This document shows, piece by piece, positions 25,646 to 39,688 of a stretch of 40,129 nt of DNA. The translations under genes were made by a program, and so were the position numbers. Under the pieces are notes generated by a model. That model searched no databases. It worked only from the letters and a program-made list of their open reading frames with translations, and was not told where the DNA came from. How positions within the stretch are numbered: position 1 is the stretch's first letter; each line of letters begins with the position of its first letter. The stretch covers positions 1-40,129 of the forward strand of contig SCQK01000006.1 in the NCBI GenBank assembly GCA_004321885.1, written 5' to 3'. The DNA is from Patescibacteria group bacterium. Lineage in GTDB: Bacteria > Patescibacteriota > Patescibacteriia > Magasanikbacterales > GWA2-37-8.

Positions 25646-26281
25646 ATGATGAATCTTGTGAAGAAGACCTACCTGGTTTGCGAGTTCGCTCCTGCCTTCC
25701 TGGACATCGTGGATGACGGGGAGCGCGGCGGTTTGTATCTGCCGGGCATCATGGATGCGTTGAAGCAGCTCAGAGAGGTTGAGATCTCATCTCGTGATCT
25801 CTCTCAACTCAAAATCCCGGAAGGTGTTTACCGCTTTCGCTTCTTTGACTGCCTGGAGGCGATTGTGAAAGAAGCGGGGGAGAAAGTCGTTCTCCGTAGC
25901 AAGGAGATGAGCCATTCCCCGTGGCATTACTCGGAGGAACAGGGCCGCCTGTTCACGCCGGACATGCCTGACTTCCTCACCGAGGAGGAAGACAAACGGC
26001 TGGACGAAGCTGGTCTGACCTGGGAGAAAAACCACGACGAGCTGGAGAAGTGGTGTCTCCGAGAGGCGGATCAGAAACTACTCACGCGCCTTCGACAGGT
26101 AAGGTGTATCGTGAAGCGCGCGTTCGTTCTCTTCCGTCTTCCGGACACTACGTCCTATGACCAGGACACGGTTTCCTTGGAGGACAGCGACATCTTCCTC
26201 CCCCGTGGGGAGATCGAGATCGACAACATCGTCGACCGTTGGGAGAACCCCAACGCCAGACATTTCTGCGTTCCTTGCTAG
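25646..26281 (+). CDS. hypothetical protein (GC-rich island gene)
   Basis: 211 aa; SD AAAGGAGA 7 nt upstream; acidic, no recognised motif; GC-rich relative to flanks; followed by a weak hairpin + T-run (26361-26386). Confidence 0.5.
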   Translation: MMNLVKKTYLVCEFAPAFLDIVDDGERGGLYLPGIMDALKQLREVEISSRDLSQLKIPEGVYRFRFFDCLEAIVKEAGEKVVLRSKEMSHSPWHYSEEQGRLFTPDMPDFLTEEEDKRLDEAGLTWEKNHDELEKWCLREADQKLLTRLRQVRCIVKRAFVLFRLPDTTSYDQDTVSLEDSDIFLPRGEIEIDNIVDRWENPNARHFCVPC

Positions 26282-26442: not shown

Positions 26443-26667
26443 ATGAATGTAGCTCTCAATATCAAAAATTTATTATGGGATGTTGACGCAAAAAAAGTGG
26501 ATGCAAGCAAACACAAAAGTTTTTTAATTTCGCGAATTTCTGAAAAAGGCGGTACGCGAGAAATAGCCTGGTTGCGCCGCCAATATTCGGATAAAGACAT
26601 CAAGAAAATCGTGGCGAAAAGCCGCAATGTTTCGGCAAAGACAAAAAATTTTTGGAAGCTGTTTTAA
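26443..26667 (+). CDS. small protein (74 aa) translationally coupled to the AbiEii-like nucleotidyltransferase; putative antitoxin/partner
   Basis: Lys-rich 74-aa ORF directly downstream of a consensus promoter; its stop TAA is immediately followed by the ATG of the next gene (TAATATG). Confidence 0.5.
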   Translation: MNVALNIKNLLWDVDAKKVDASKHKSFLISRISEKGGTREIAWLRRQYSDKDIKKIVAKSRNVSAKTKNFWKLF

Positions 26668-26668
26668 T

Positions 26669-27298
26669 ATGTTTTATCCAGAGGCGCTGACCGCGGAATC
26701 AATCGCTTTAATAAAAAAAATTAATGCGAGCAAATGGCTGTCTGATTTTTATTTGGCCGGCGGTACGGGTTTGGCTTTATGGTATGGCCATCGGCAATCG
26801 GTTGATTTGGATTTTTTTAGAAAAAGCGATATTGCCACCAAGCAATTGATAAAAAAATTGTCTTCGCTCGGCAGATTCAAATTATTGAATGAAGAAGAAA
26901 ACACGGTGGAGGGGATACTGGAAAAGGTGAAAGTTAGTTTCATGACTTATCCGTATGGTTTGTTGCGCAAGCGTCAGCCGTATGATGGCGTTATCTTTTT
27001 AGCAGAACCATTGGATATCGCCGTCATGAAAGTCGGAGCGATCGCCGACAGAAATACGAAGAAAGATTTTATTGACCTGTATGTTTTTTTACGGCGCGAG
27101 AACATGAGTTTAAAAAATTTGTTATCGCATCTGCGAAAAAAATTCAGCCGCGTGAATTACGATATTTTTCATTTATACAAATCCCTTGTCTATTTTGAGG
27201 ATGCCGACAAAGAACCTATGCCGAGGATGTTTATTGATTTAAAATGGGAAAAGGTCAGGCGATTTTTTAAAGACGAGGTTAGGAAGCTGGTGGCATGA
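26669..27298 (+). CDS. nucleotidyltransferase of the AbiEii/AbiGii (DUF1814-like) toxin family
   Basis: ORF 26627..27298, start re-chosen at 26669; LAGGTGLALWYGHRQSVDLDFF matches the GGTAL..HR.S.DLDF nucleotidyltransferase signature of AbiEii-type proteins. Confidence 0.6.
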   Translation: MFYPEALTAESIALIKKINASKWLSDFYLAGGTGLALWYGHRQSVDLDFFRKSDIATKQLIKKLSSLGRFKLLNEEENTVEGILEKVKVSFMTYPYGLLRKRQPYDGVIFLAEPLDIAVMKVGAIADRNTKKDFIDLYVFLRRENMSLKNLLSHLRKKFSRVNYDIFHLYKSLVYFEDADKEPMPRMFIDLKWEKVRRFFKDEVRKLVA

Positions 27299-27336
27299 GT
27301 ATCCGGCTTGGCATAAGCCCGGCCCGCTATCCGTTT

Positions 27337-27360
27337 TCCCCCGAAAGGGGGATTTTTTTA
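27337..27360 (+). terminator. rho-independent terminator
   Basis: TCCCCC-GAAA-GGGGGA followed by TTTTTTT. Confidence 0.75.
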
Positions 27361-27463
27361 AATTCTACGGTGTGGATAACTAATTTAGTATGAGTTTATA
27401 GGAGTTGACTTTTTGGCGAGGATAAGGCAAAATTCGCCTGCTTTGGGCACCCCCTTGCAAGTG

Positions 27464-27472
27464 TGGTATAAT
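27464..27472 (+). promoter_or_regulatory. extended -10 promoter (TGgTATAAT) upstream of nrdJ
   Basis: TGnTATAAT at 27464-27472, ~150-nt structured leader before the nrdJ ATG at 27626. Confidence 0.5.
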
Positions 27473-27496
27473 AGCATCCGCGTCAGTAAGAAAATA

Positions 27497-27538
27497 CCAC
27501 ATCTTGTGGTCTAACCGCGCTTAAAATACTATATATAG
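27497..27538 (+). promoter_or_regulatory. two NrdR-box-like palindromes (CCACATCTTGTGG and CTATATATAG) spaced ~31 bp centre to centre
   Basis: Box 1 at 27497-27509 and box 2 at 27529-27538 lie just downstream of the promoter; spacing and the CwAtATaTwG core resemble NrdR operators recalled from the literature. Confidence 0.4.
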
Positions 27539-27625
27539 CTTTTTGCCCTGCGGGCAAAAGATATAAACTTATTCCTTCGGAAGTTATCCGCCTAAGGCGG
27601 ACAACTTCGCTCACTCATTTCGTTT

Positions 27626-30600
27626 ATGGTAAATAACCTCGCCACCAAGACATTTGTTCTGGATACTGACTTCAAATACGCGCCGGAAACCGGTTTGCGT
27701 TTTAAGCGGCATTTTACCAAAGCAGGCGCTAATCCTTATGATTTGTTCACTTACGAGTTGCGCTCGTCCCTTATCCGCGAGCCCAGCGGCCAGATTGTGT
27801 TTGAAATGAAAGAGGTGGAAGTGCCTGTTACCTGGTCCCAGGTGGCCACCGACATTTTAGCGCAAAAATATTTTCGCAAGGCCGGAGTGCCGAAATATAA
27901 TCCGGACGGCTCGCCCATGCTTGGGGCCGACGGGCTACCGGTACTCGGCTGCGAAACCAGCATTAAGCAGGTGGCGCACCGAATGGCCGGCACCTGGCGG
28001 TATTGGGGAGAGAAGTACGGCTATTTTGCCTCGGCCGAGGACGCGCAGGTGTTTTACGACGAGCTGGCCTACATGCTCATCGCCCAGATGGCCGCGCCCA
28101 ACTCGCCCCAGTGGTTCAACACCGGTTTGTACTGGGCTTATGGCATCAATGGCCCGGCCCAGGGGCATTATTATACCGACCATAACACGGACATCACCCA
28201 GCTTTCGCCTGATGCCTATTCACGAAGTCAGGCGCACGCGTGTTTTATCCAAGGAGTCAAAGATGACTTGGTAAATGAAGGAGGAATTATGGATTTATGG
28301 CTGCGCGAAGCGCGGATATTTAAATATGGTTCGGGCACTGGCACAAATTTTTCGGCTTTGCGCGGCGCCGGCGAAACACTTTCCGGCGGCGGCACCTCCT
28401 CGGGCTTGATGAGCTGGCTTAAAATCGGGGACCGCGCGGCCGGGGCCATTAAATCCGGCGGCACCACGCGCCGCGCCGCCAAAATGGTAATCCTAAACAT
28501 TGACCATCCGGACATTGAAGAATTTATTGACTGGAAAGTGCGCGAGGAAAAAAAAGTGGCGGCTCTGATCGCCGCCGGCTATGATAATGCCTATGAGGGC
28601 GAGGCCTACCAGACCGTTTCCGGACAAAATTCAAACAACTCGGTGCGCGTGTCCCAGGAATTTTTGGAAGCCGTGGAAAGTGACAGTGACTGGAAATTAA
28701 CCTGGCGCACCGACCCCGACAAATTCAAAGCTGTTAAGGCAAAAAAATTGTGGGATAAAATCGCTTCGGCGGCCTGGTCCTGCGCCGACCCGGGCGTGCA
28801 ATTTGACACCAATATCAACGACTGGCACACCTGCCCAAAATCGGGCCGTATCAATGCCAGCAATCCTTGCGCGGAATTTATGTACCTGGACTCAAGCGCT
28901 TGTAATCTCGCTTCCATCAACCTGGCGCATTTTTATGACGCGGATAATTTGACCTTTGATGCAGACGGATTTAAGTACACTTCGCGCTTGTGGACTGTGG
29001 TTTTGGAAATCAGTATTTTGATGGCTCAATTTCCAAGCTATGAGATTGCCAGAACCACTCAAGACACCCGCAGTCTGGGTTTGGGCTATGCCAATATCGG
29101 CAGTGTGCTGATGACCGCGGGCCTGCCCTATGATTCGCCCGAGGCCATGGCTTTCGCCGGCGCTGTTACCGCCCTCATGACCGCCGAGTCGTTCGCCGCC
29201 TCGGCCGAGCTGGCCAAAAATTTGGGGGCGTTCAAGTATTTTGCCGCTAATCGCGATGACATGTTGCGTGTGGCGCGCAATCACCGGCGCGCGGCTTACA
29301 GCGCCCCGGCGGAAGAGTACGAAGGCATCGCCATTAAGCCCGCCGGCATAAATGAACAGTACGCGCCGGCTTATCTGCTGGCCGAGGCGCGCGCGGCCTG
29401 GGACAGGGCCCTGGAGCTGGGGGAAAAATACGGCTTTCGCAACGCCCAGCTCACCCTGCTCGCGCCTACCGGCACCATCGGCCTGGTAATGGACTGCGCC
29501 ACCACCGGCGTGGAGCCGGATTTCGCTTTGGTGAAATTTAAAAAATTGGCCGGCGGTGGATATTTTAAGATTGTCAACGAATCCGTGCCCGTGGCTTTGC
29601 GCGTGCTGGGCTACAGCGACTTGCAGATAAATGATGTAGTGAATTATTTGCGCGGACACTCCACTTTGCGTCAGGCCCCGCATATCAATCATCAAACTTT
29701 GCTGGAGAAAGGCTTTACGGCCGATGAGCTGGACAAATTGGAAAAAGCCCTGCCCATGAGTTTTGAATTGCAGTTTGCCCTAAATGTTTGGACACTGGGT
29801 GAGGACTGCCTGAAACGGCTGGGCTTTACCAGCGAGCAGTATAATGACAATAATTTTAATTTGCTGGCGGCGCTGGGATTTTCCGCCGATGATATAGCGG
29901 CGGCCAATGAATATGTTTGCGGGGCCATGACCATAGAAGGCGCGCCGCATTTGCGCAAAGAGCATTACGCGGTGTTTGACACGGCCAACAAGAACGGCAA
30001 AAAAGGCCAGCGCTACATTCATTACCTCGGCCACATCCGCATGATGGCCGCGGTCCAGCCGTTTCTTTCCGGCGCCATTTCTAAAACCATAAACATGCCG
30101 AACGAGGCGACGATAGACGACGTCAAAACCGCTTACGTGGCCTCATGGAAACTTGGGCTCAAGGCCGTTGCTTTGTATCGTGATGGGTGCAAGCTGTCGC
30201 AACCCTTGTCCGCGAAATCAAATAAGAAAAAAGAGGACAAGGCTGAGGAGCCGGTCAATGCCGCGCCCGCCCAGTATGTTTTGACCGATAAAAGCGACCA
30301 CGTGATTCGTCAGATGATTTCTGAAACCCAGGCCATGACCAAGTACGCGCACGACGGCTCCAGCCAGGGCACGAAAATTTACATTCACGGCGAACAGCGC
30401 AAGATGCCGTACAAGAGAAGCGGGCTGACGATTAAAGCCAAGGTCGCGGGCCAAAAAATATTCTTGCGCACCGGCGAGTATCCGGACGGCAAACTGGGCG
30501 AGATATTTATTGATATGTATAAAGAGGGCGCGGCTTTTCGTAGTTTGCTCAATTGTCTGGCCATCTCCATTTCCACGGGCCTGCAATACGGCATACCATT

Positions 30601-31069
30601 GGAAGAATACGTGGAAAAATTTACTTTTACGCGCTTTGAGCCCAGCGGCATGACCGACCACCCGAACGTGCGCTCGTGCACCTCCATCATTGATTTTGTC
30701 TTCCGCGTGCTGGGCATGGAATATCTGGGGCGGATGGATTTTGTGCAGGTGAAACCGGTCGGCATCCAAAAAAACCGGGCCGAGCAGATGGCGAAATTGG
30801 CGGCCGAGAAAGCCGGGCAGAGATTGCTGGAGTTAAACGGGGCGGAGACGGAAATTGAAGAAGTGGAAGAAATAGTTCAGCCGAGTTTGCCCAATATGCC
30901 GCGGACAGACGCGGCGGGAAAAGGCGAGGTGACTTCCGACGCAATGAACCAGCAACTCGCGGGCATGATGGGCGACGCGCCGCCGTGCGCTACTTGCGGG
31001 CATGTCACTATACGAAACGGCAGTTGCTATAAGTGTTTGAATTGCGGGAGTACGACCGGGTGTTCTTGA
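27626..31069 (+). CDS. nrdJ: adenosylcobalamin-dependent ribonucleotide reductase (class II)
   Basis: 1147 aa; N-terminal ATP-cone-like region, RNR active-site Cys/Asn/Glu blocks (NPCAEFMYLDSSACNLASINL), C-terminal Zn-ribbon CATCGHVTIRNGSCYKCLNCGSTTGC typical of class II RNR. Confidence 0.9.
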   Translation: MVNNLATKTFVLDTDFKYAPETGLRFKRHFTKAGANPYDLFTYELRSSLIREPSGQIVFEMKEVEVPVTWSQVATDILAQKYFRKAGVPKYNPDGSPMLGADGLPVLGCETSIKQVAHRMAGTWRYWGEKYGYFASAEDAQVFYDELAYMLIAQMAAPNSPQWFNTGLYWAYGINGPAQGHYYTDHNTDITQLSPDAYSRSQAHACFIQGVKDDLVNEGGIMDLWLREARIFKYGSGTGTNFSALRGAGETLSGGGTSSGLMSWLKIGDRAAGAIKSGGTTRRAAKMVILNIDHPDIEEFIDWKVREEKKVAALIAAGYDNAYEGEAYQTVSGQNSNNSVRVSQEFLEAVESDSDWKLTWRTDPDKFKAVKAKKLWDKIASAAWSCADPGVQFDTNINDWHTCPKSGRINASNPCAEFMYLDSSACNLASINLAHFYDADNLTFDADGFKYTSRLWTVVLEISILMAQFPSYEIARTTQDTRSLGLGYANIGSVLMTAGLPYDSPEAMAFAGAVTALMTAESFAASAELAKNLGAFKYFAANRDDMLRVARNHRRAAYSAPAEEYEGIAIKPAGINEQYAPAYLLAEARAAWDRALELGEKYGFRNAQLTLLAPTGTIGLVMDCATTGVEPDFALVKFKKLAGGGYFKIVNESVPVALRVLGYSDLQINDVVNYLRGHSTLRQAPHINHQTLLEKGFTADELDKLEKALPMSFELQFALNVWTLGEDCLKRLGFTSEQYNDNNFNLLAALGFSADDIAAANEYVCGAMTIEGAPHLRKEHYAVFDTANKNGKKGQRYIHYLGHIRMMAAVQPFLSGAISKTINMPNEATIDDVKTAYVASWKLGLKAVALYRDGCKLSQPLSAKSNKKKEDKAEEPVNAAPAQYVLTDKSDHVIRQMISETQAMTKYAHDGSSQGTKIYIHGEQRKMPYKRSGLTIKAKVAGQKIFLRTGEYPDGKLGEIFIDMYKEGAAFRSLLNCLAISISTGLQYGIPLEEYVEKFTFTRFEPSGMTDHPNVRSCTSIIDFVFRVLGMEYLGRMDFVQVKPVGIQKNRAEQMAKLAAEKAGQRLLELNGAETEIEEVEEIVQPSLPNMPRTDAAGKGEVTSDAMNQQLAGMMGDAPPCATCGHVTIRNGSCYKCLNCGSTTGCS

Positions 31070-31082
31070 TGCAAGTTACATT

Positions 31083-31661
31083 ATGAAAATCTATACCAAA
31101 ACCGGCGACACCGGTGAGACGTCGTTGTTAGGGGGAAAGAGGGTGAGTAAGAGCTGTGTGGAAATGAAAGTAGTTGGGGAAATTGATGAACTTAACGCGG
31201 CTTTGGGATTGGCTGTGTCACACTGTCATTCTGACCACGACGTAACGTCGGGGGAAGAATCCCTTGTTTTAATCATCAAAGACATTCAGCGCGATTTATT
31301 TAAATTAGGTGCGGAAATCGCTTCAGCTCAAACTGTCATTGCGACCCGCCCGGAGGCGGGGAAGCAATCACGGACAATCAGCGGCGAAGAAACAAAAAAA
31401 TTGGAAACAAAAATAGACCAACTCTGGCCCCAAATGCCCGAGTTGAAAAATTTTATCCTGCCCGGCGGGTGCGAGACGGCCGCGCGTCTGCACCTGGCCC
31501 GCGCGATTTGCCGCCGCGCCGAACGCGAACTGGTGGCCTTTGGCCAAAAGAAAAAAATCAGGACGGCATTGTATAGATACTTCAATCGCCTAAGCGATTT
31601 TCTCTTTACCGCGGCCCGCTGGGCCAATCATCAGAATGGAATCACAGAAGAGCCACGCTAA
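31083..31661 (+). CDS. PduO-type ATP:cob(I)alamin adenosyltransferase
   Basis: 192 aa; N-terminal MKIYTKTGDTGETSLLGGKRVSK and the C-terminal helical bundle of the PduO/MMAB family; contains two in-frame insertions derived from palindromic element B (31223-31263 and 31333-31369). Confidence 0.8.
   Translation: MKIYTKTGDTGETSLLGGKRVSKSCVEMKVVGEIDELNAALGLAVSHCHSDHDVTSGEESLVLIIKDIQRDLFKLGAEIASAQTVIATRPEAGKQSRTISGEETKKLETKIDQLWPQMPELKNFILPGGCETAARLHLARAICRRAERELVAFGQKKKIRTALYRYFNRLSDFLFTAARWANHQNGITEEPR
31223..31263. repeat. palindromic element B, degenerate copy B2, in-frame in pduO
   Basis: CTGTCATTCTGACCACGACGTAACGTCGGGGGAAGAATCCC (compare GTCATTGCGAG ... GAAGCAATCCC with an inner CGACGTnACGTCG hairpin as in B5). 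Confidence 0.6.
31333..31369. repeat. palindromic element B, copy B3, in-frame in pduO
   Basis: CTGTCATTGCGACCCGCCCGGAGGCGGGGAAGCAATC, near-identical to the first arm of B4. Confidence 0.7.
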
Positions 31662-31690
31662 AATAGCAGACCCTTTTGTTTTGGTGAGTG

Positions 31691-31772
31691 TGGTCCGGGT
31701 GGGAATCGAACCCACATGCCTTGCGGCACGAGATTTTAAGTCTCGCGTGTATGCCAGTTCCACCACCGGACC
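31691..31772 (-). tRNA. tRNA-Leu (anticodon TAA)
   Basis: On the minus strand: acceptor GGTCCGG/CCGGACC, anticodon stem-loop CGAGA-CTTAAAA-TCTCG, long variable arm TGCCGCAAGGCATG (class II), T-loop GGTTCGATTCC. Confidence 0.8.
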
Positions 31773-31828
31773 GTTGCCGCAACAATATCACAAATTAAAG
31801 CGCGGATCAAGGACACCGCTGCGATTTT

Positions 31829-31837
31829 ATGATATAA
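31829..31837 (+). promoter_or_regulatory. extended -10 promoter (TGaTATAAT) for the pilin-like cluster
   Basis: TGnTATAAT ~60 nt upstream of the 31899 ATG; element A8 lies between the promoter and the start codon. Confidence 0.4.
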
Positions 31838-31850
31838 TGTTAGCGCATAT

Positions 31851-31898: not shown

Positions 31899-33704
31899 AT
31901 GCCAAGGAGAGATAGAAAAAAAATCGCGCGCGGATTTAGTTTGTTGGAAGTGGTGCTTTCCGTCGGCATTTTTGTTTTGTTCGCTTTTGGCATTTACGGC
32001 GGCATCAATTTGATATTCAAAATTGTTTACCAGTCGCGCATGCGCATTTTAGAAACCGCGATTTTGGCCGAGAAATTGGAAATCGCGCGCAACCTGCCCT
32101 TTGACAGCGTGGGCATAATAAACGGCTCGCCCGCGGGCCTGCTGCCCCACACCACGACCACCATCAGAAACGGGCAGGTCTTCACCCTAATTACCACGGT
32201 GAGAAACATAGACGACCCTTTTGACGGCCTGGCCGGCGGCTCGCCCAACGACACTTCGCCGGCTGATTACAAGTTAGTGGAAATTTCCGCCATTTGTCAG
32301 ACCTGTCTGCAAAAAATCCCGGTAATTTTAAGCACCACTGTGGCGCCGAAAAATTTGGAAGGCGCCACCAGCAACGGCTCGCTTTTTATTCAGGTGTTTG
32401 ACGCCCAGGGTTTGCCCGTGGTCGGCGCCAATGTGAGCGCCACCAATACCGCGCGCGCGCCAAACGTGGTGATACAAGACACCACCGACAATACCGGCTG
32501 GCTAAAAATTATAGACACCACCACCGGCACGCAAAGCTATTATATTTCCGTCACTAAAAACGGCTTTTCGCGCGATTATTCGGTTGACGCGGCTTCCATA
32601 GGGGCCACGCCCATCAAGCCTCCGTCCACAGTTGTTACTCAAACCGTCACCGAGGTTAGTTTTTCCATAGACCGCGTCGGCTCAATGAATTTACACACCA
32701 TCAATTCAGGCTGTTCGGCCATCGCCAATGCCGATTTTAATATCAGAAGCGAACGGCTCCTTGGCACTAATCCGGATGTTTACAAATACAATCAAAATTT
32801 AACCACGAACGGCTCGGGCAATTACGCCTTTGCCAGCATGGAATGGGGCAAATATCATTTCAGCGCCACCAATACGCCCTATGATATCGCCGGCTCCATT
32901 CCCATGCTGCCGGCGGATTTGGCGCCGGGCGCGGCCCAGGACGTCTCTTTGATTTTAACCTCGCAATCCCCCAATTCATTGCTGGTGAAAGTAAAAGACG
33001 CGGGTACTGGCCTGCCGCTTTCCGACACGTTGGTTCATCTTACCAAAAGCGGCTATGATGAAAGTAAAACAACCGGTTATGGATTTATGCGCCAAACCGA
33101 TTGGTCCGGCGGAAGCGGCCAGGTAACCAGCACAGACCCGGCGCGCTATTTTGCCGATGACACCAACGTGGACAACAATTCTCCGGCCGGGGATTTGAAA
33201 TTAAAAAAAGCCGGCCCTGATTATCTAAACAGCGGCTGGCTGGAGTCTTCCACTTTTGATCTGCAAACGCAAGTTGATTTTCATAGTTTAATTTTTCAGC
33301 CGGTCACCCAGCCGCCGCAGACCGGGACCGAACCCATAAAATTTCAGATGGCCGCCACCAATACCCCCAGTTCCAGCGGCTGGGTTTATCTGGGCCCGGA
33401 CGGCGCCACCAGCACTTATTATGTTTCCACCAGCAGTTTGGTGTGGAGCGGCTTGGATAACAATCGCTATCTGCGTTACAAAGTATTTTTGAGCACGGCT
33501 GACACAGGCTATACTCCATTGCTGTCCGAAGTCTCCATCACCTATACCAATAACTGCGTGCCGCCCGGGCAGGTGTTTTTTGGCGGGCTTGGCGCCGGCA
33601 GTTACACATTGGAAGTTTCGCGAAATGGCTATATCACCAACAGCGGGCTGGTGGATGTGGCCGGCGCCACCGACGCGGTGGTAAATTTGTCTCCGAATAT
33701 ATGA
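31899..33704 (+). CDS. large type IV pilin-like protein (prepilin-type N-terminal cleavage/methylation domain)
   Basis: 601 aa; class III signal KKIARG|FSLLEVVLSVGIFVLFAF with Gly-1 and Glu+5, then a Thr/Ser/Asn/Gly-rich beta-type region of ~550 aa. Confidence 0.75.
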   Translation: MPRRDRKKIARGFSLLEVVLSVGIFVLFAFGIYGGINLIFKIVYQSRMRILETAILAEKLEIARNLPFDSVGIINGSPAGLLPHTTTTIRNGQVFTLITTVRNIDDPFDGLAGGSPNDTSPADYKLVEISAICQTCLQKIPVILSTTVAPKNLEGATSNGSLFIQVFDAQGLPVVGANVSATNTARAPNVVIQDTTDNTGWLKIIDTTTGTQSYYISVTKNGFSRDYSVDAASIGATPIKPPSTVVTQTVTEVSFSIDRVGSMNLHTINSGCSAIANADFNIRSERLLGTNPDVYKYNQNLTTNGSGNYAFASMEWGKYHFSATNTPYDIAGSIPMLPADLAPGAAQDVSLILTSQSPNSLLVKVKDAGTGLPLSDTLVHLTKSGYDESKTTGYGFMRQTDWSGGSGQVTSTDPARYFADDTNVDNNSPAGDLKLKKAGPDYLNSGWLESSTFDLQTQVDFHSLIFQPVTQPPQTGTEPIKFQMAATNTPSSSGWVYLGPDGATSTYYVSTSSLVWSGLDNNRYLRYKVFLSTADTGYTPLLSEVSITYTNNCVPPGQVFFGGLGAGSYTLEVSRNGYITNSGLVDVAGATDAVVNLSPNI

Positions 33705-33713
33705 GTATTATCC

Positions 33714-33799
33714 CTGTCATTGCGAGGACCCGCCCAGGGCGGGGACGAAGCAATCTCTTGCAATTACGCATGGGATTGCTTCGCTTCGCTCGCAATGAC
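33714..33799. repeat. palindromic element B, complete copy B4 (both arms)
   Basis: GTCATTGCGAG-GACCCGCCCAGGGCGGGGAC-GAAGCAATC ... GGATTGCTTCGCTTCGCTCGCAATGAC; the arms are reverse complements; lies between pilin genes 1 and 2. Confidence 0.8.
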
Positions 33800-34390
33800 A
33801 TGCGCGGCATCACGGTCGTGGAAGTGCTGGTGGCCGTGGCGCTTTTTGGTTTTTTGATAGTTTCCATCGCCTGGATTTTTTTGACCAGCTGGAAATCAAA
33901 CAGCATTGTTTGGGAACAGCTGGCCACGCAAAACGAGGGCCGCAAAGCCACCCAGGATTTTGTCAATGAACTGCGCACGGCTTCGGCTTCAAGCGGCGGG
34001 GCCTATGCCATAGAATCAGCCGCCACCTCATCCATAGTTTTTTATTCCAACATTGACGCGGACACTTTCAAAGAGCGCGTGCGTTATTTTCTTTCCGGCG
34101 CCACTCTCAAAAAAGGCGTCATCAAGCCGACCGGCGACCCGTTTGTCTACAATCCGGCCAATGAAATCATTACCGAAGTGGCGCACGATGTGGCCATGGC
34201 CGGCGCCCCGATTTTCACGTATTATAATGCAAATTTTAGCGGTTATTCTTCGCCTTTGCCCGCGCCAGTTACCACGACAATGATAAGGGTGGTAAATATC
34301 TCCTTGAAATTAGAAGAGGACCCGCATTTGTCTCCGGCGCCGTTTAACATTGAATCTAAAGTGATGATAAGAAATTTGAAAGACAACTGA
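33800..34390 (+). CDS. prepilin-type pseudopilin/minor pilin
   Basis: ORF 33701..34390; the first 33 codons are the in-frame translation of palindromic element B4; the ATG at 33800 gives MRG|ITVVEVLVAVALFGFLIVSIAW, a canonical prepilin signal with Glu+5. Confidence 0.7.
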   Translation: MRGITVVEVLVAVALFGFLIVSIAWIFLTSWKSNSIVWEQLATQNEGRKATQDFVNELRTASASSGGAYAIESAATSSIVFYSNIDADTFKERVRYFLSGATLKKGVIKPTGDPFVYNPANEIITEVAHDVAMAGAPIFTYYNANFSGYSSPLPAPVTTTMIRVVNISLKLEEDPHLSPAPFNIESKVMIRNLKDN

Positions 34391-38127: not shown

Positions 38128-38613
38128 ATGCGCCTTATCAATTTATATTTTTTTCTGGCTTTGCTTTTAGCGGTTTTTTTGTCCCCTGTCATTCCCGCGC
38201 AAGCTGAAAGTCCCTTTGGCACTGATGACGAGCAGGCTGGGCAGGCAAAGAAAAACGTTCAAGAGAAAGAAACCAAATCAAGCGAGCGCGCTTTGCCTTC
38301 GGTATTGCCAAACTGCGCCAAGACCGGCGATTTGTCCGCGAGTTCGCCCTGCCGCGATGTTTCCATATTCGTGGAGCTTGGCATCAACATCGCGCGCTAT
38401 TTGTTTTCCATTATCGGCGCGCTGGCCCTCTTAATGTTCGTCTACGGCGGCTTTATGCTGATACTGTCGGCCGGCAGCGCCGAGCGGGTGAAAAAAGGCG
38501 GTGAAATAATGCTGGCGGCTATGGTGGGACTCCTAATTTCATTTACCGCCTATATGCTGGTGCGCTTTTTGGGCGGGGCCGTGGGGCTTGGGAGTGAGTT
38601 TAAGTTGAAGTGA
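38128..38613 (+). CDS. TrbC/VirB2-like pilin family protein, paralog 1
   Basis: 161 aa; signal peptide, ~75-aa variable region with 2 Cys, then a conserved C-terminal two-helix hairpin ALALLMFVYGGFMLILSAGSAERVKKGGEIMLAAMVGLLISFTAYML; SD from element A9. Confidence 0.7.
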   Translation: MRLINLYFFLALLLAVFLSPVIPAQAESPFGTDDEQAGQAKKNVQEKETKSSERALPSVLPNCAKTGDLSASSPCRDVSIFVELGINIARYLFSIIGALALLMFVYGGFMLILSAGSAERVKKGGEIMLAAMVGLLISFTAYMLVRFLGGAVGLGSEFKLK

Positions 38614-38675
38614 CCCCGCTTAGCGGGGTTATTCTGACCATGCACCGCTCTGGTGCAGGGGAAGGATCCCTTAGT

Positions 38676-39290
38676 ATGAACAAGAAAAAAGTTGGAATGG
38701 TTATCATAATTTTATTGGCGGTATTTTTTTCTTTTTTGTTTGTTTCGTTTTCAGTAAAAGCCGCTTCAAATTGTTGGTGTAGCGTGCAGAACAAATGCAC
38801 TTTAAATATCCCGGCGGAAGAATGCGTGACGTTTGGACCAGATTGCCAATCGCAAGATACCTGCCCTGGTTATGTGGCTTGTTTTTGTGCCATGAAAAAT
38901 AATAGCTGTGAATTAGTGAAAGGCGGCGGGGAAGATTGTCAGGCGGCAGGTTGTAATATTTTAACCGAATGTCCCAAACCAGCGGAAAAACAGACTGACA
39001 CGTTTAGTAATTTACAACAGCAGGCCGCGAGTGGTCTGAATCCGGCCGGGTTTGGCGAGGTGCCGGATTTTATCGGTCAAGTTTTGAAGTTTCTAATGGG
39101 CGCCTTGGGTTCAATCGCTTTGGCGCTGTATGTGTGGGCTGGGTTTTTGTGGATGACCGCGGCTGGCAATGCTGAGCGCGCGGGCAAGGCCAAGACACTG
39201 TTGTTTTGGACCACTTTGGGCGTGGTGGGCGCTTTGGCCAGTTACACGCTCGTTAAGTTTATTTTCCAGGCCCTGGAACTAAGCGTATGA
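38676..39290 (+). CDS. TrbC/VirB2-like pilin family protein, paralog 2 (Cys-rich ectodomain)
   Basis: ORF 38610..39290, start re-chosen at 38676 (MNKKKVGMVIIILL...); 14 Cys in an ~80-aa variable domain, then the conserved hairpin SIALALYVWAGFLWMTAAGNAERAGKAKTLLFWTTLGVVGALASY. Confidence 0.7.
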   Translation: MNKKKVGMVIIILLAVFFSFLFVSFSVKAASNCWCSVQNKCTLNIPAEECVTFGPDCQSQDTCPGYVACFCAMKNNSCELVKGGGEDCQAAGCNILTECPKPAEKQTDTFSNLQQQAASGLNPAGFGEVPDFIGQVLKFLMGALGSIALALYVWAGFLWMTAAGNAERAGKAKTLLFWTTLGVVGALASYTLVKFIFQALELSV

Positions 39291-39688
39291 AAAAATTTTT
39301 ATTACTTTGTTTAGTTATATTTTTAGTCGCGTTATTTTTTCCTTTGGCGGGCTTGCGGGCCGAGGAGGCAAAAAAAGATTGCGCGCCCGACAGCACAGGC
39401 CAAATCGTGTGCAAATTACAGCCGCCGCTCTTGGGCAAAGATAAAAAACCCGTTACTGACCCGGCCGCGCTTGTCGGCATTATCATCAAGGGAGTTTTGG
39501 GCATTGTAGGTGCGCTCGCTTTATTGATGGTTTTTTGGGGCGCGGCTGGCTGGCTGTTCGCGGCCGGCAATCCGGAGAAAATTAAAGCCAGCACCAAAAC
39601 GATTGTTTGGGCTTTAATTGGGTTGCTGATAATTTTTGCCAGCTATATGTATATGAACGGCGTTTTGAAGTTTATGTTTGGCGGTTGA
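39287..39688 (+). CDS. TrbC/VirB2-like pilin family protein, paralog 3
   Basis: 133 aa; signal peptide, short variable region with 2 Cys, conserved hairpin ALALLMVFWGAAGWLFAAGNPEKIKASTKTIVWALIGLLIIFASYM; 4-nt overlap with paralog 2. Confidence 0.7.
   Translation: MKKFLLLCLVIFLVALFFPLAGLRAEEAKKDCAPDSTGQIVCKLQPPLLGKDKKPVTDPAALVGIIIKGVLGIVGALALLMVFWGAAGWLFAAGNPEKIKASTKTIVWALIGLLIIFASYMYMNGVLKFMFGG

Follow-up and report, generated by a model that had tools for sequence, protein, structure and literature searches.

The locus studied here raises two linked questions: how does a bacterium of the Candidate Phyla Radiation (CPR) control its ribonucleotide reductase (RNR), and how does it provide that enzyme with its cofactor? 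The locus is an nrdJ-pduO gene pair, with the leader that precedes it, on contig SCQK01000006.1, a 40,129-nt stretch of Patescibacteria DNA (hereafter “the window”, at its full length). The answer we propose is a Magasanikbacteria-like CPR nrdJ-pduO operon which would be transcribed from a conserved promoter through a tandem operator for the repressor NrdR, with PduO supplying the adenosylcobalamin (AdoCbl) that NrdJ uses, and we put the probability of this whole account at roughly 85%. It is built on the following features, in window coordinates:

27444-27472, plus strand: predicted sigma-70-type promoter, the best promoter-like site (10/12 matches, TG present)
27494-27509, no strand assigned: predicted NrdR box 1, ATACCACATCTTGTGG, 16 bp (orthologue matrix, 22.6 bits)
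27526-27541, no strand assigned: predicted NrdR box 2, ATACTATATATAGCTT, 16 bp (orthologue matrix, 19.4 bits)
27626-31069, plus strand: nrdJ, class II adenosylcobalamin-dependent RNR, 1147 aa (open reading frame (ORF), Pfam and NCBIfam)
31083-31661, plus strand: pduO-type ATP:cob(I)alamin adenosyltransferase gene, 192 aa (ORF, Pfam and NCBIfam)

The leader contains two palindromes, CCACATCTTGTGG at 27497-27509 and CTATATATAG at 27529-27538, each of which occurs once in the window with none expected in shuffled sequences. Their starts lie 32 bp apart, where the initial annotation, which had picked out both, gave ~31 bp, and both are contained in a direct repeat (AAAATAC.., AAAATACCACAT / AAAATACTATAT) with the same 32-bp spacing. 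When scored with position matrices derived from 30 orthologous leaders, the window itself being left out, the box pair at 27494 reached 42.0 bits, whereas no other site on either strand of the 40-kb window scored above 3.8 bits and none of 200 shuffles above 17.2 bits. The two 16-bp boxes are separated by a 16-bp linker (27510-27525), which places the box centres three helical turns apart. Box 2 differs from the consensus ACACWATATATWGTGT at 3 positions, and no other site in the 40-kb window comes as close. For the first element, the functional register is the 16-mer 27494-27509, 1.5 bp off the centre of the 13-nt palindrome; this 16-mer is identical at 15/16 positions to box 1 of an orthologous leader (L007), and the single change relative to that box is what makes the 13-nt palindrome perfect.

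Described NrdR sites consist of two 16-bp boxes with a linker of 15-16 bp, 14-17 bp being tolerated (PMC12051234), and PMC9110341 and PMC13584703 give the same geometry. The predicted boxes show the consensus, the linker length and a location at an RNR promoter that is conserved in orthologous promoters. The distribution of such sites was assessed in a comparison set of 80 nrdJ loci, ~30 of which had tandem boxes visible upstream of nrdJ and provided the matrices. Scanning full loci for box-pair sites of at least 18 bits returned exactly one site in 38 of the 80, in each case immediately 5' of nrdJ or of nrdR-nrdJ, and 8 of these 38 loci lie outside the matrix-building set; the same scan found none in the other 42 (mostly Bacteroidota, Ignavibacteria, Kapaibacteria and Chlorobiota). 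The linker in relatives is 16 or 17 bp, and in four CPR nrdR-nrdJ loci (L076, L082, L088 and L091) this type of tandem site, there with a linker of 17 bp, immediately precedes nrdR.

In an alignment of 27 Magasanikbacteria-type nrdJ leaders, the columns without any variation are, in box 1, C4, A6, T11 and G13, in box 2, C4 and A6, and outside the boxes the TG-TATAAT positions of the promoter and the start codon, with no conservation past box 2. The palindromes vary without compensation, their observed pairing being equal to that of shuffled columns, which fits a DNA site bound by a protein, as opposed to an RNA helix under selection; the helix reading was rejected on this ground. Comparing nrdJ leaders of relatives, a check put forward with the initial annotation, thus found the palindromes conserved, and its description of them as NrdR-operator-like is borne out by the conservation of sequence, register, spacing and position. 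The sequence evidence thus supports reading the palindromes as the core parts of a tandem NrdR operator of canonical form.

The identity of the two genes agrees with what had been annotated, i.e., a class II RNR gene and, 13 nt further on, a gene for a PduO-type adenosyltransferase. NrdJ matches Ribonuc_red_2_N (PF08471), Ribonuc_red_lgC (PF02867) and TSCPD in Pfam, and exceeds the cut-offs of NF005122 (1244 bits, cut-off 859) and TIGR02504 (590 bits, cut-off 400); PduO matches the PduO N-terminal domain (PF01923, 185 bits) and TIGR00636 (173.5 bits, cut-off 108), and the measured intergenic gap is 13 nt. AdoCbl-dependent activity would be expected of NrdJ from its family membership. The Pfam domain scan found no ATP-cone in NrdJ, and the protein carries a Cys-rich C-terminal tail (CATCGH...CYKCLNCGSTTGCS), as is common among long class II enzymes. 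Its closest relatives (62-78% identity) come from metagenome-assembled genomes (MAGs) of Candidatus Magasanikbacteria and other Patescibacteria. Many of the CPR-type nrdJ loci (L001-L014, L032-L055, including L051) are titled “uncultured Gammaproteobacteria”, “uncultured Hyphomicrobiales” or “Udaeobacter”, MAG labels which are probably wrong. Two close relatives have an in-frame insertion of ~345 aa in nrdJ (L019:2340-3480 and L024:4297-5440) with intein splicing and LAGLIDADG homing-endonuclease domains, at a site corresponding to residues ~203-224 of the window NrdJ, which is intein-free. Shine-Dalgarno-like sequences are absent before both nrdJ (27609-27625) and pduO (31070-31082), and a T immediately 5' of the nrdJ ATG (“TATG”) is present in 26/27 relatives.

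The promoter consists of a -35 element TGGGCA (27444-27449), a 17-nt spacer, a TG (27464-27465) and a TATAAT -10 (27467-27472); the extended -10 TGgTATAAT spans 27464-27472, and the TGnTATAAT pattern is conserved. The -10 ends ~21 nt before box 1. Transcription would start near 27479, giving a predicted leader of ~147 nt with the operator at about +15 to +62, in agreement with the ~150-nt leader of the initial annotation. Two further features delimit the transcription unit:

27335-27352, plus strand: terminator-like hairpin TTTCCCCCGAAAGGGGGA followed by TTTTTTT, 3' of an AbiEii-family gene (upstream boundary of the nrdJ unit)
31690-31772, minus strand: tRNA-Leu(UAA), convergent to the operon (downstream boundary)

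Since scanning the 13-nt gap revealed neither a promoter-like nor a terminator-like site, and since the pair is bounded by this hairpin upstream and by the tRNA-Leu gene and a new promoter-like site (31810-31838) downstream, nrdJ and pduO are probably co-transcribed, and we infer a bicistronic operon. Among the neighbours, the gene immediately 5' of the nrdJ promoter (26627-27298) encodes a toxin of the AbiEii family and is preceded by a 211-aa ORF (25646-26281) without a family match, which could be its partner. The tRNA-Leu(UAA) gene is conserved just downstream of pduO, in either orientation, in L001, L002, L005, L007, L009, L011 and L051. Further along the window (33701-34390 and 38128-39688) are a pilin-like ORF whose N-terminus carries a methylation motif and three small T4SS_pilin-like ORFs.

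With the operon arranged in this way, transcription from the conserved extended -10 promoter would proceed through the tandem operator. NrdR operators are bound by a tetramer loaded with dATP and ATP (PMC12051234; likewise PMC9110341 and PMC13584703), and both NrdR binding and this nucleotide dependence would be expected at the window operator. Bound NrdR would block RNA polymerase binding, promoter escape or early elongation, and deoxynucleoside triphosphate (dNTP) synthesis would be shut down; NrdR loaded with ATP only would form oligomers which do not bind DNA, and the operon would be expressed. Since NrdJ lacks an ATP-cone, we propose that NrdR would be the sole dATP/ATP sensor acting on this enzyme.

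Control could instead reside in the RNA: the leader would be a riboswitch or attenuator which senses AdoCbl, a nucleotide or a protein and gates nrdJ transcription or translation, with the hairpins past box 2, and perhaps also the RNA copies of the palindromes, acting as the sensor. Two hairpins are in question:

27540-27560, plus strand: hairpin H1 (UUUUUGCCC-UGC-GGGCAAAAG), abutting box 2 (-10.5 kcal/mol, z -2.8)
27580-27608, plus strand: hairpin H2 (GAAGUU-A-UCCGCC-UAA-GGCGGA-C-AACUUC) (-17.6 kcal/mol, z -4.9)

Both fold more stably than shuffled sequences, which speaks for such an element and confirms the two stable hairpins of the initial annotation, except that H2 ends 17 nt, and not 14 nt, before the nrdJ ATG. 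Neither is followed by a U-tract or called by terminator scans, and an intrinsic-terminator attenuator in the window leader was rejected for these reasons. H1 is not conserved in the leaders of the closest relatives and H2 has no counterpart in orthologous leaders; in the closest relatives, box 2 and the ATG are separated by 7 to 113 nt of leader with neither sequence nor structure in common. Across 24 leaders, the first 55 nt past box 2 showed no excess of structure over coding controls (mean z -1.12 vs. -1.06, p = 0.81), and a generally structured leader was rejected accordingly. Rfam searches returned no match in the window leader at the gathering threshold, only chance-level matches (E of at least 0.27) across 27280-27700 at a permissive threshold, and none in nine orthologous loci with models that included the cobalamin riboswitches, so that a riboswitch or known RNA family was likewise rejected. 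The distance from start site to hairpin is, in addition, too short for a B12 aptamer. The initial annotation had also presented the leader as structured and suggested the Rfam cobalamin and NrdR-related models as a check; with hairpins that are not conserved and no family matched, this part of it is not supported. The hairpins are probably lineage-specific and may affect mRNA stability, and do not belong to a conserved riboswitch.

The remaining support for RNA-level control comes from a subset of more distant relatives, in which a GC-rich hairpin plus T-run occurs 0-20 nt past box 2 in 12/29 leaders (L005, L006, L007, L008, L010, L011, L013, L014, L020, L034, also L026 and L031), whereas reverse complements give 3 and shuffles would give 2.2. 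Each locus has its own stem sequence, the DNA downstream of the hairpins showed no second promoter, and a stricter scan called none of these (clade B) hairpins a terminator, the signal appearing under loose criteria only. Taken together, we regard an RNA control element as improbable. A hybrid is likewise improbable: in Magasanikbacteria, the NrdR operator would have shifted into the transcribed leader, where the hairpin abutting box 2 would add a second, RNA-level checkpoint to DNA-bound NrdR, as an attenuator or a roadblock-assisted terminator. The T-run which this would use is present in ~12 related leaders and absent from the window. If true, such combined control of an RNR operon by protein operator and attenuator would be undescribed.

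Returning to the NrdR-controlled operon, several observations count against it. Box 1 has 5 mismatches to the general NrdR consensus (11/16 match). The operator lies downstream of the predicted -10 and does not overlap the promoter as it does in sister CPR, and the exact mode of repression is therefore uncertain. Neither Pfam scans of ~40 ORFs nor tblastn queries with NrdR from E. coli and CPR detected nrdR in the window, nor was it seen in any of the Magasanikbacteria-type loci examined, up to 6 kb from nrdJ; look-ups of exact proteins, aimed at extending the window, returned only Logan contigs of 1.6 and 5.4 kb from run SRR8426592. None of the NrdR homologues among the matches listed is labelled Magasanikbacteria (the labels being Kerfeld-, Buchanan-, Nomurabacteria and “Patescibacteria group”), so that the cognate repressor of this lineage is putative. 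Finally, the 40-kb window contains no gene for cobalamin synthesis, salvage or transport.

As for the position of the operator, box 1 of the nrdR-linked CPR loci lies between a TTGAC -35 and a TATACT/TATAAT -10, and both placements, between -35 and -10 or downstream of the -10, fall within the described variety of NrdR sites (PMC12051234). As for the repressor itself, homologue searches show NrdR to be abundant in Patescibacteria. In one Kerfeldbacteria locus (L076), nrdJ is immediately preceded by nrdR, and the order ftsA-ftsZ-(DUF2079)-nrdR-nrdJ, followed by a CobA-type adenosyltransferase gene, recurs in four independent CPR contexts. In other CPR genomes (L087, L092-L095), nrdR follows ftsZ without an adjacent RNR gene; an unlinked nrdR, as the window lineage would need, is thus common, and nrdR would be expected elsewhere in the source genome. 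The gene stands 3' of ybeY-dagK-ftsA-ftsZ, with no RNR gene adjoining, at L087:6001-6477, L093:5001-5474 and L095:5001-6011. A DUF4430 gene, which follows the complete nrdR-nrdJ-CobA clusters, still follows nrdR in L094 and L095, and together with the lack of an RNR gene there this suggests an ancestral nrdR cluster from which the genes for RNR and adenosyltransferase have since moved away.

Might the boxes then be bound by another regulator, or form RNA hairpins, and only look like NrdR boxes? The lack of nrdR in the examined DNA of the Magasanikbacteria-type lineage would fit this, as would the location of the boxes inside the transcript, assuming that it starts from the predicted promoter. 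Against it stand the consensus, the 16-bp size, the 16-17 bp linker and the exclusive position before RNR genes, all of which match NrdR operators, together with the identical type of site before nrdR-nrdJ in sister lineages and the absence of covariation in the palindromes. We therefore consider a different regulator highly unlikely. One specific candidate, a TrmB-family helix-turn-helix (HTH) protein (~242-260 aa) encoded, often along with uppS, between nrdJ and pduO in L006, L008, L010, L020 and L034, was rejected as the box-binding factor given that it is found in only these five relatives, whereas the boxes occur in all.

The second question, that of the cofactor, is addressed by the gene next to nrdJ. 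In 23 related loci, a pduO gene follows nrdJ at a distance of up to ~3 kb, the two being adjacent in the closest relatives, and PduO identity across these linked loci is 37-57%; uppS, TrmB-like regulator and NYN-domain genes intervene in several relatives. In other CPR, class II RNR genes are followed by a CobA-type adenosyltransferase gene (TIGR00708), non-homologous to PduO and directly after nrdJ in L053-L055. The occurrence of PduO or CobA in the same slot is a non-orthologous replacement, and two unrelated enzymes of the same function in one slot argue for a functional coupling with nrdJ. The same coupling logic applies to the nrdJ-cbrS-cbrT-pduO cluster described in the B12 auxotroph Lactobacillus delbrueckii (PMC5997447). 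The coupling asserted in the initial annotation is hence supported by linkage in the 23 relatives and by the analogous CobA. The nrdR-nrdJ-CobA clusters (L082:6001-10598, L088:5001-10435, L091:5001-10423 and L076:5396-10986) are followed by DUF4430 and DUF6580 genes, the products of which are possible corrinoid-binding or uptake proteins.

That pduO sits beside nrdJ incidentally, through mere synteny or in the service of another AdoCbl enzyme, might be read from the intervening genes and from the lack of a linked uptake gene in the window, but is hardly credible given linkage kept over 23 such divergent loci, the non-homologous CobA in the same place and a 40-kb window with no other AdoCbl-dependent enzyme. 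Under the coupled reading, PduO would adenosylate cob(I)alamin derived from imported corrinoid and deliver AdoCbl to NrdJ in step with NrdJ synthesis, and it is a reasonable inference from these genes that the source organism scavenges or imports corrinoids.

Both components, i.e., an NrdR-controlled RNR operon and an nrdJ gene linked to an adenosyltransferase gene, are of already known kinds, and the nrdJ-pduO operon leaves knowledge of NrdR or NrdJ themselves unchanged. In the limited literature collection searched, we found no description of NrdR or of class II RNR in Patescibacteria. The interest of the locus is that reduced CPR genomes would keep a standard dNTP-supply circuit, in which an NrdR operator governs a single class II RNR, and would carry the cofactor-activating adenosyltransferase with the reductase, which points to external corrinoid dependence, a useful marker for reconstructing what episymbionts need from their partners. 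The PduO/CobA slot across CPR lineages also offers a tidy case of non-orthologous replacement.

How, then, does this operon compare with known systems? Cobalamin riboswitches control some RNR genes (e.g., Streptomyces nrdABS) and tie B12 status to RNR choice, although to our knowledge they repress B12-independent RNRs and not nrdJ; the window differs in having no cobalamin riboswitch in its nrdJ leader. NrdR operators are known from E. coli nrdAB, nrdHIEF and nrdDG, Listeria nrdDG and nrdAB, and Streptomyces coelicolor nrdRJ and nrdABS, and Streptomyces NrdR also regulates a class II NrdJ. Like these operators, the window has a pair of partially palindromic 16-bp boxes at an RNR promoter, with a linker in the 15-16 bp range. 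It differs from them in that its boxes, as predicted from sequence, lie ~21 nt past the -10 in the transcribed leader and not over the -35/-10, and in that nrdR is not adjacent, whereas the operons of Streptomyces and sister CPR begin with it. The consensus of the boxes is acaCwAtATaTwGtgt (PMC12051234), a form also given in PMC9110341 and PMC13584703.

The L. delbrueckii cluster pairs, as the window does, a B12-dependent RNR with an adenosyltransferase of the PduO type, and its host depends on corrinoid import (PMC5997447), as the source organism of the window probably would. The window differs from it in its CPR host, in a long, 1147-aa NrdJ with TSCPD and a Cys-rich tail, and in having no transporter of the energy-coupling factor type (ECF-CbrT) or other corrinoid transporter in the cluster or in the 40-kb window. 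Closer to home are the CPR nrdR-nrdJ-cobA-DUF4430(-DUF6580) clusters located by ftsA-ftsZ (L076, L082, L088 and L091). Unlike the window, these have an adenosyltransferase of the CobA/BtuR type, nrdR within the operon, box 1 between the -35 and -10, and DUF4430 and DUF6580 genes following; like the window, they bring together a class II RNR, an adenosyltransferase and a tandem operator of the same consensus.

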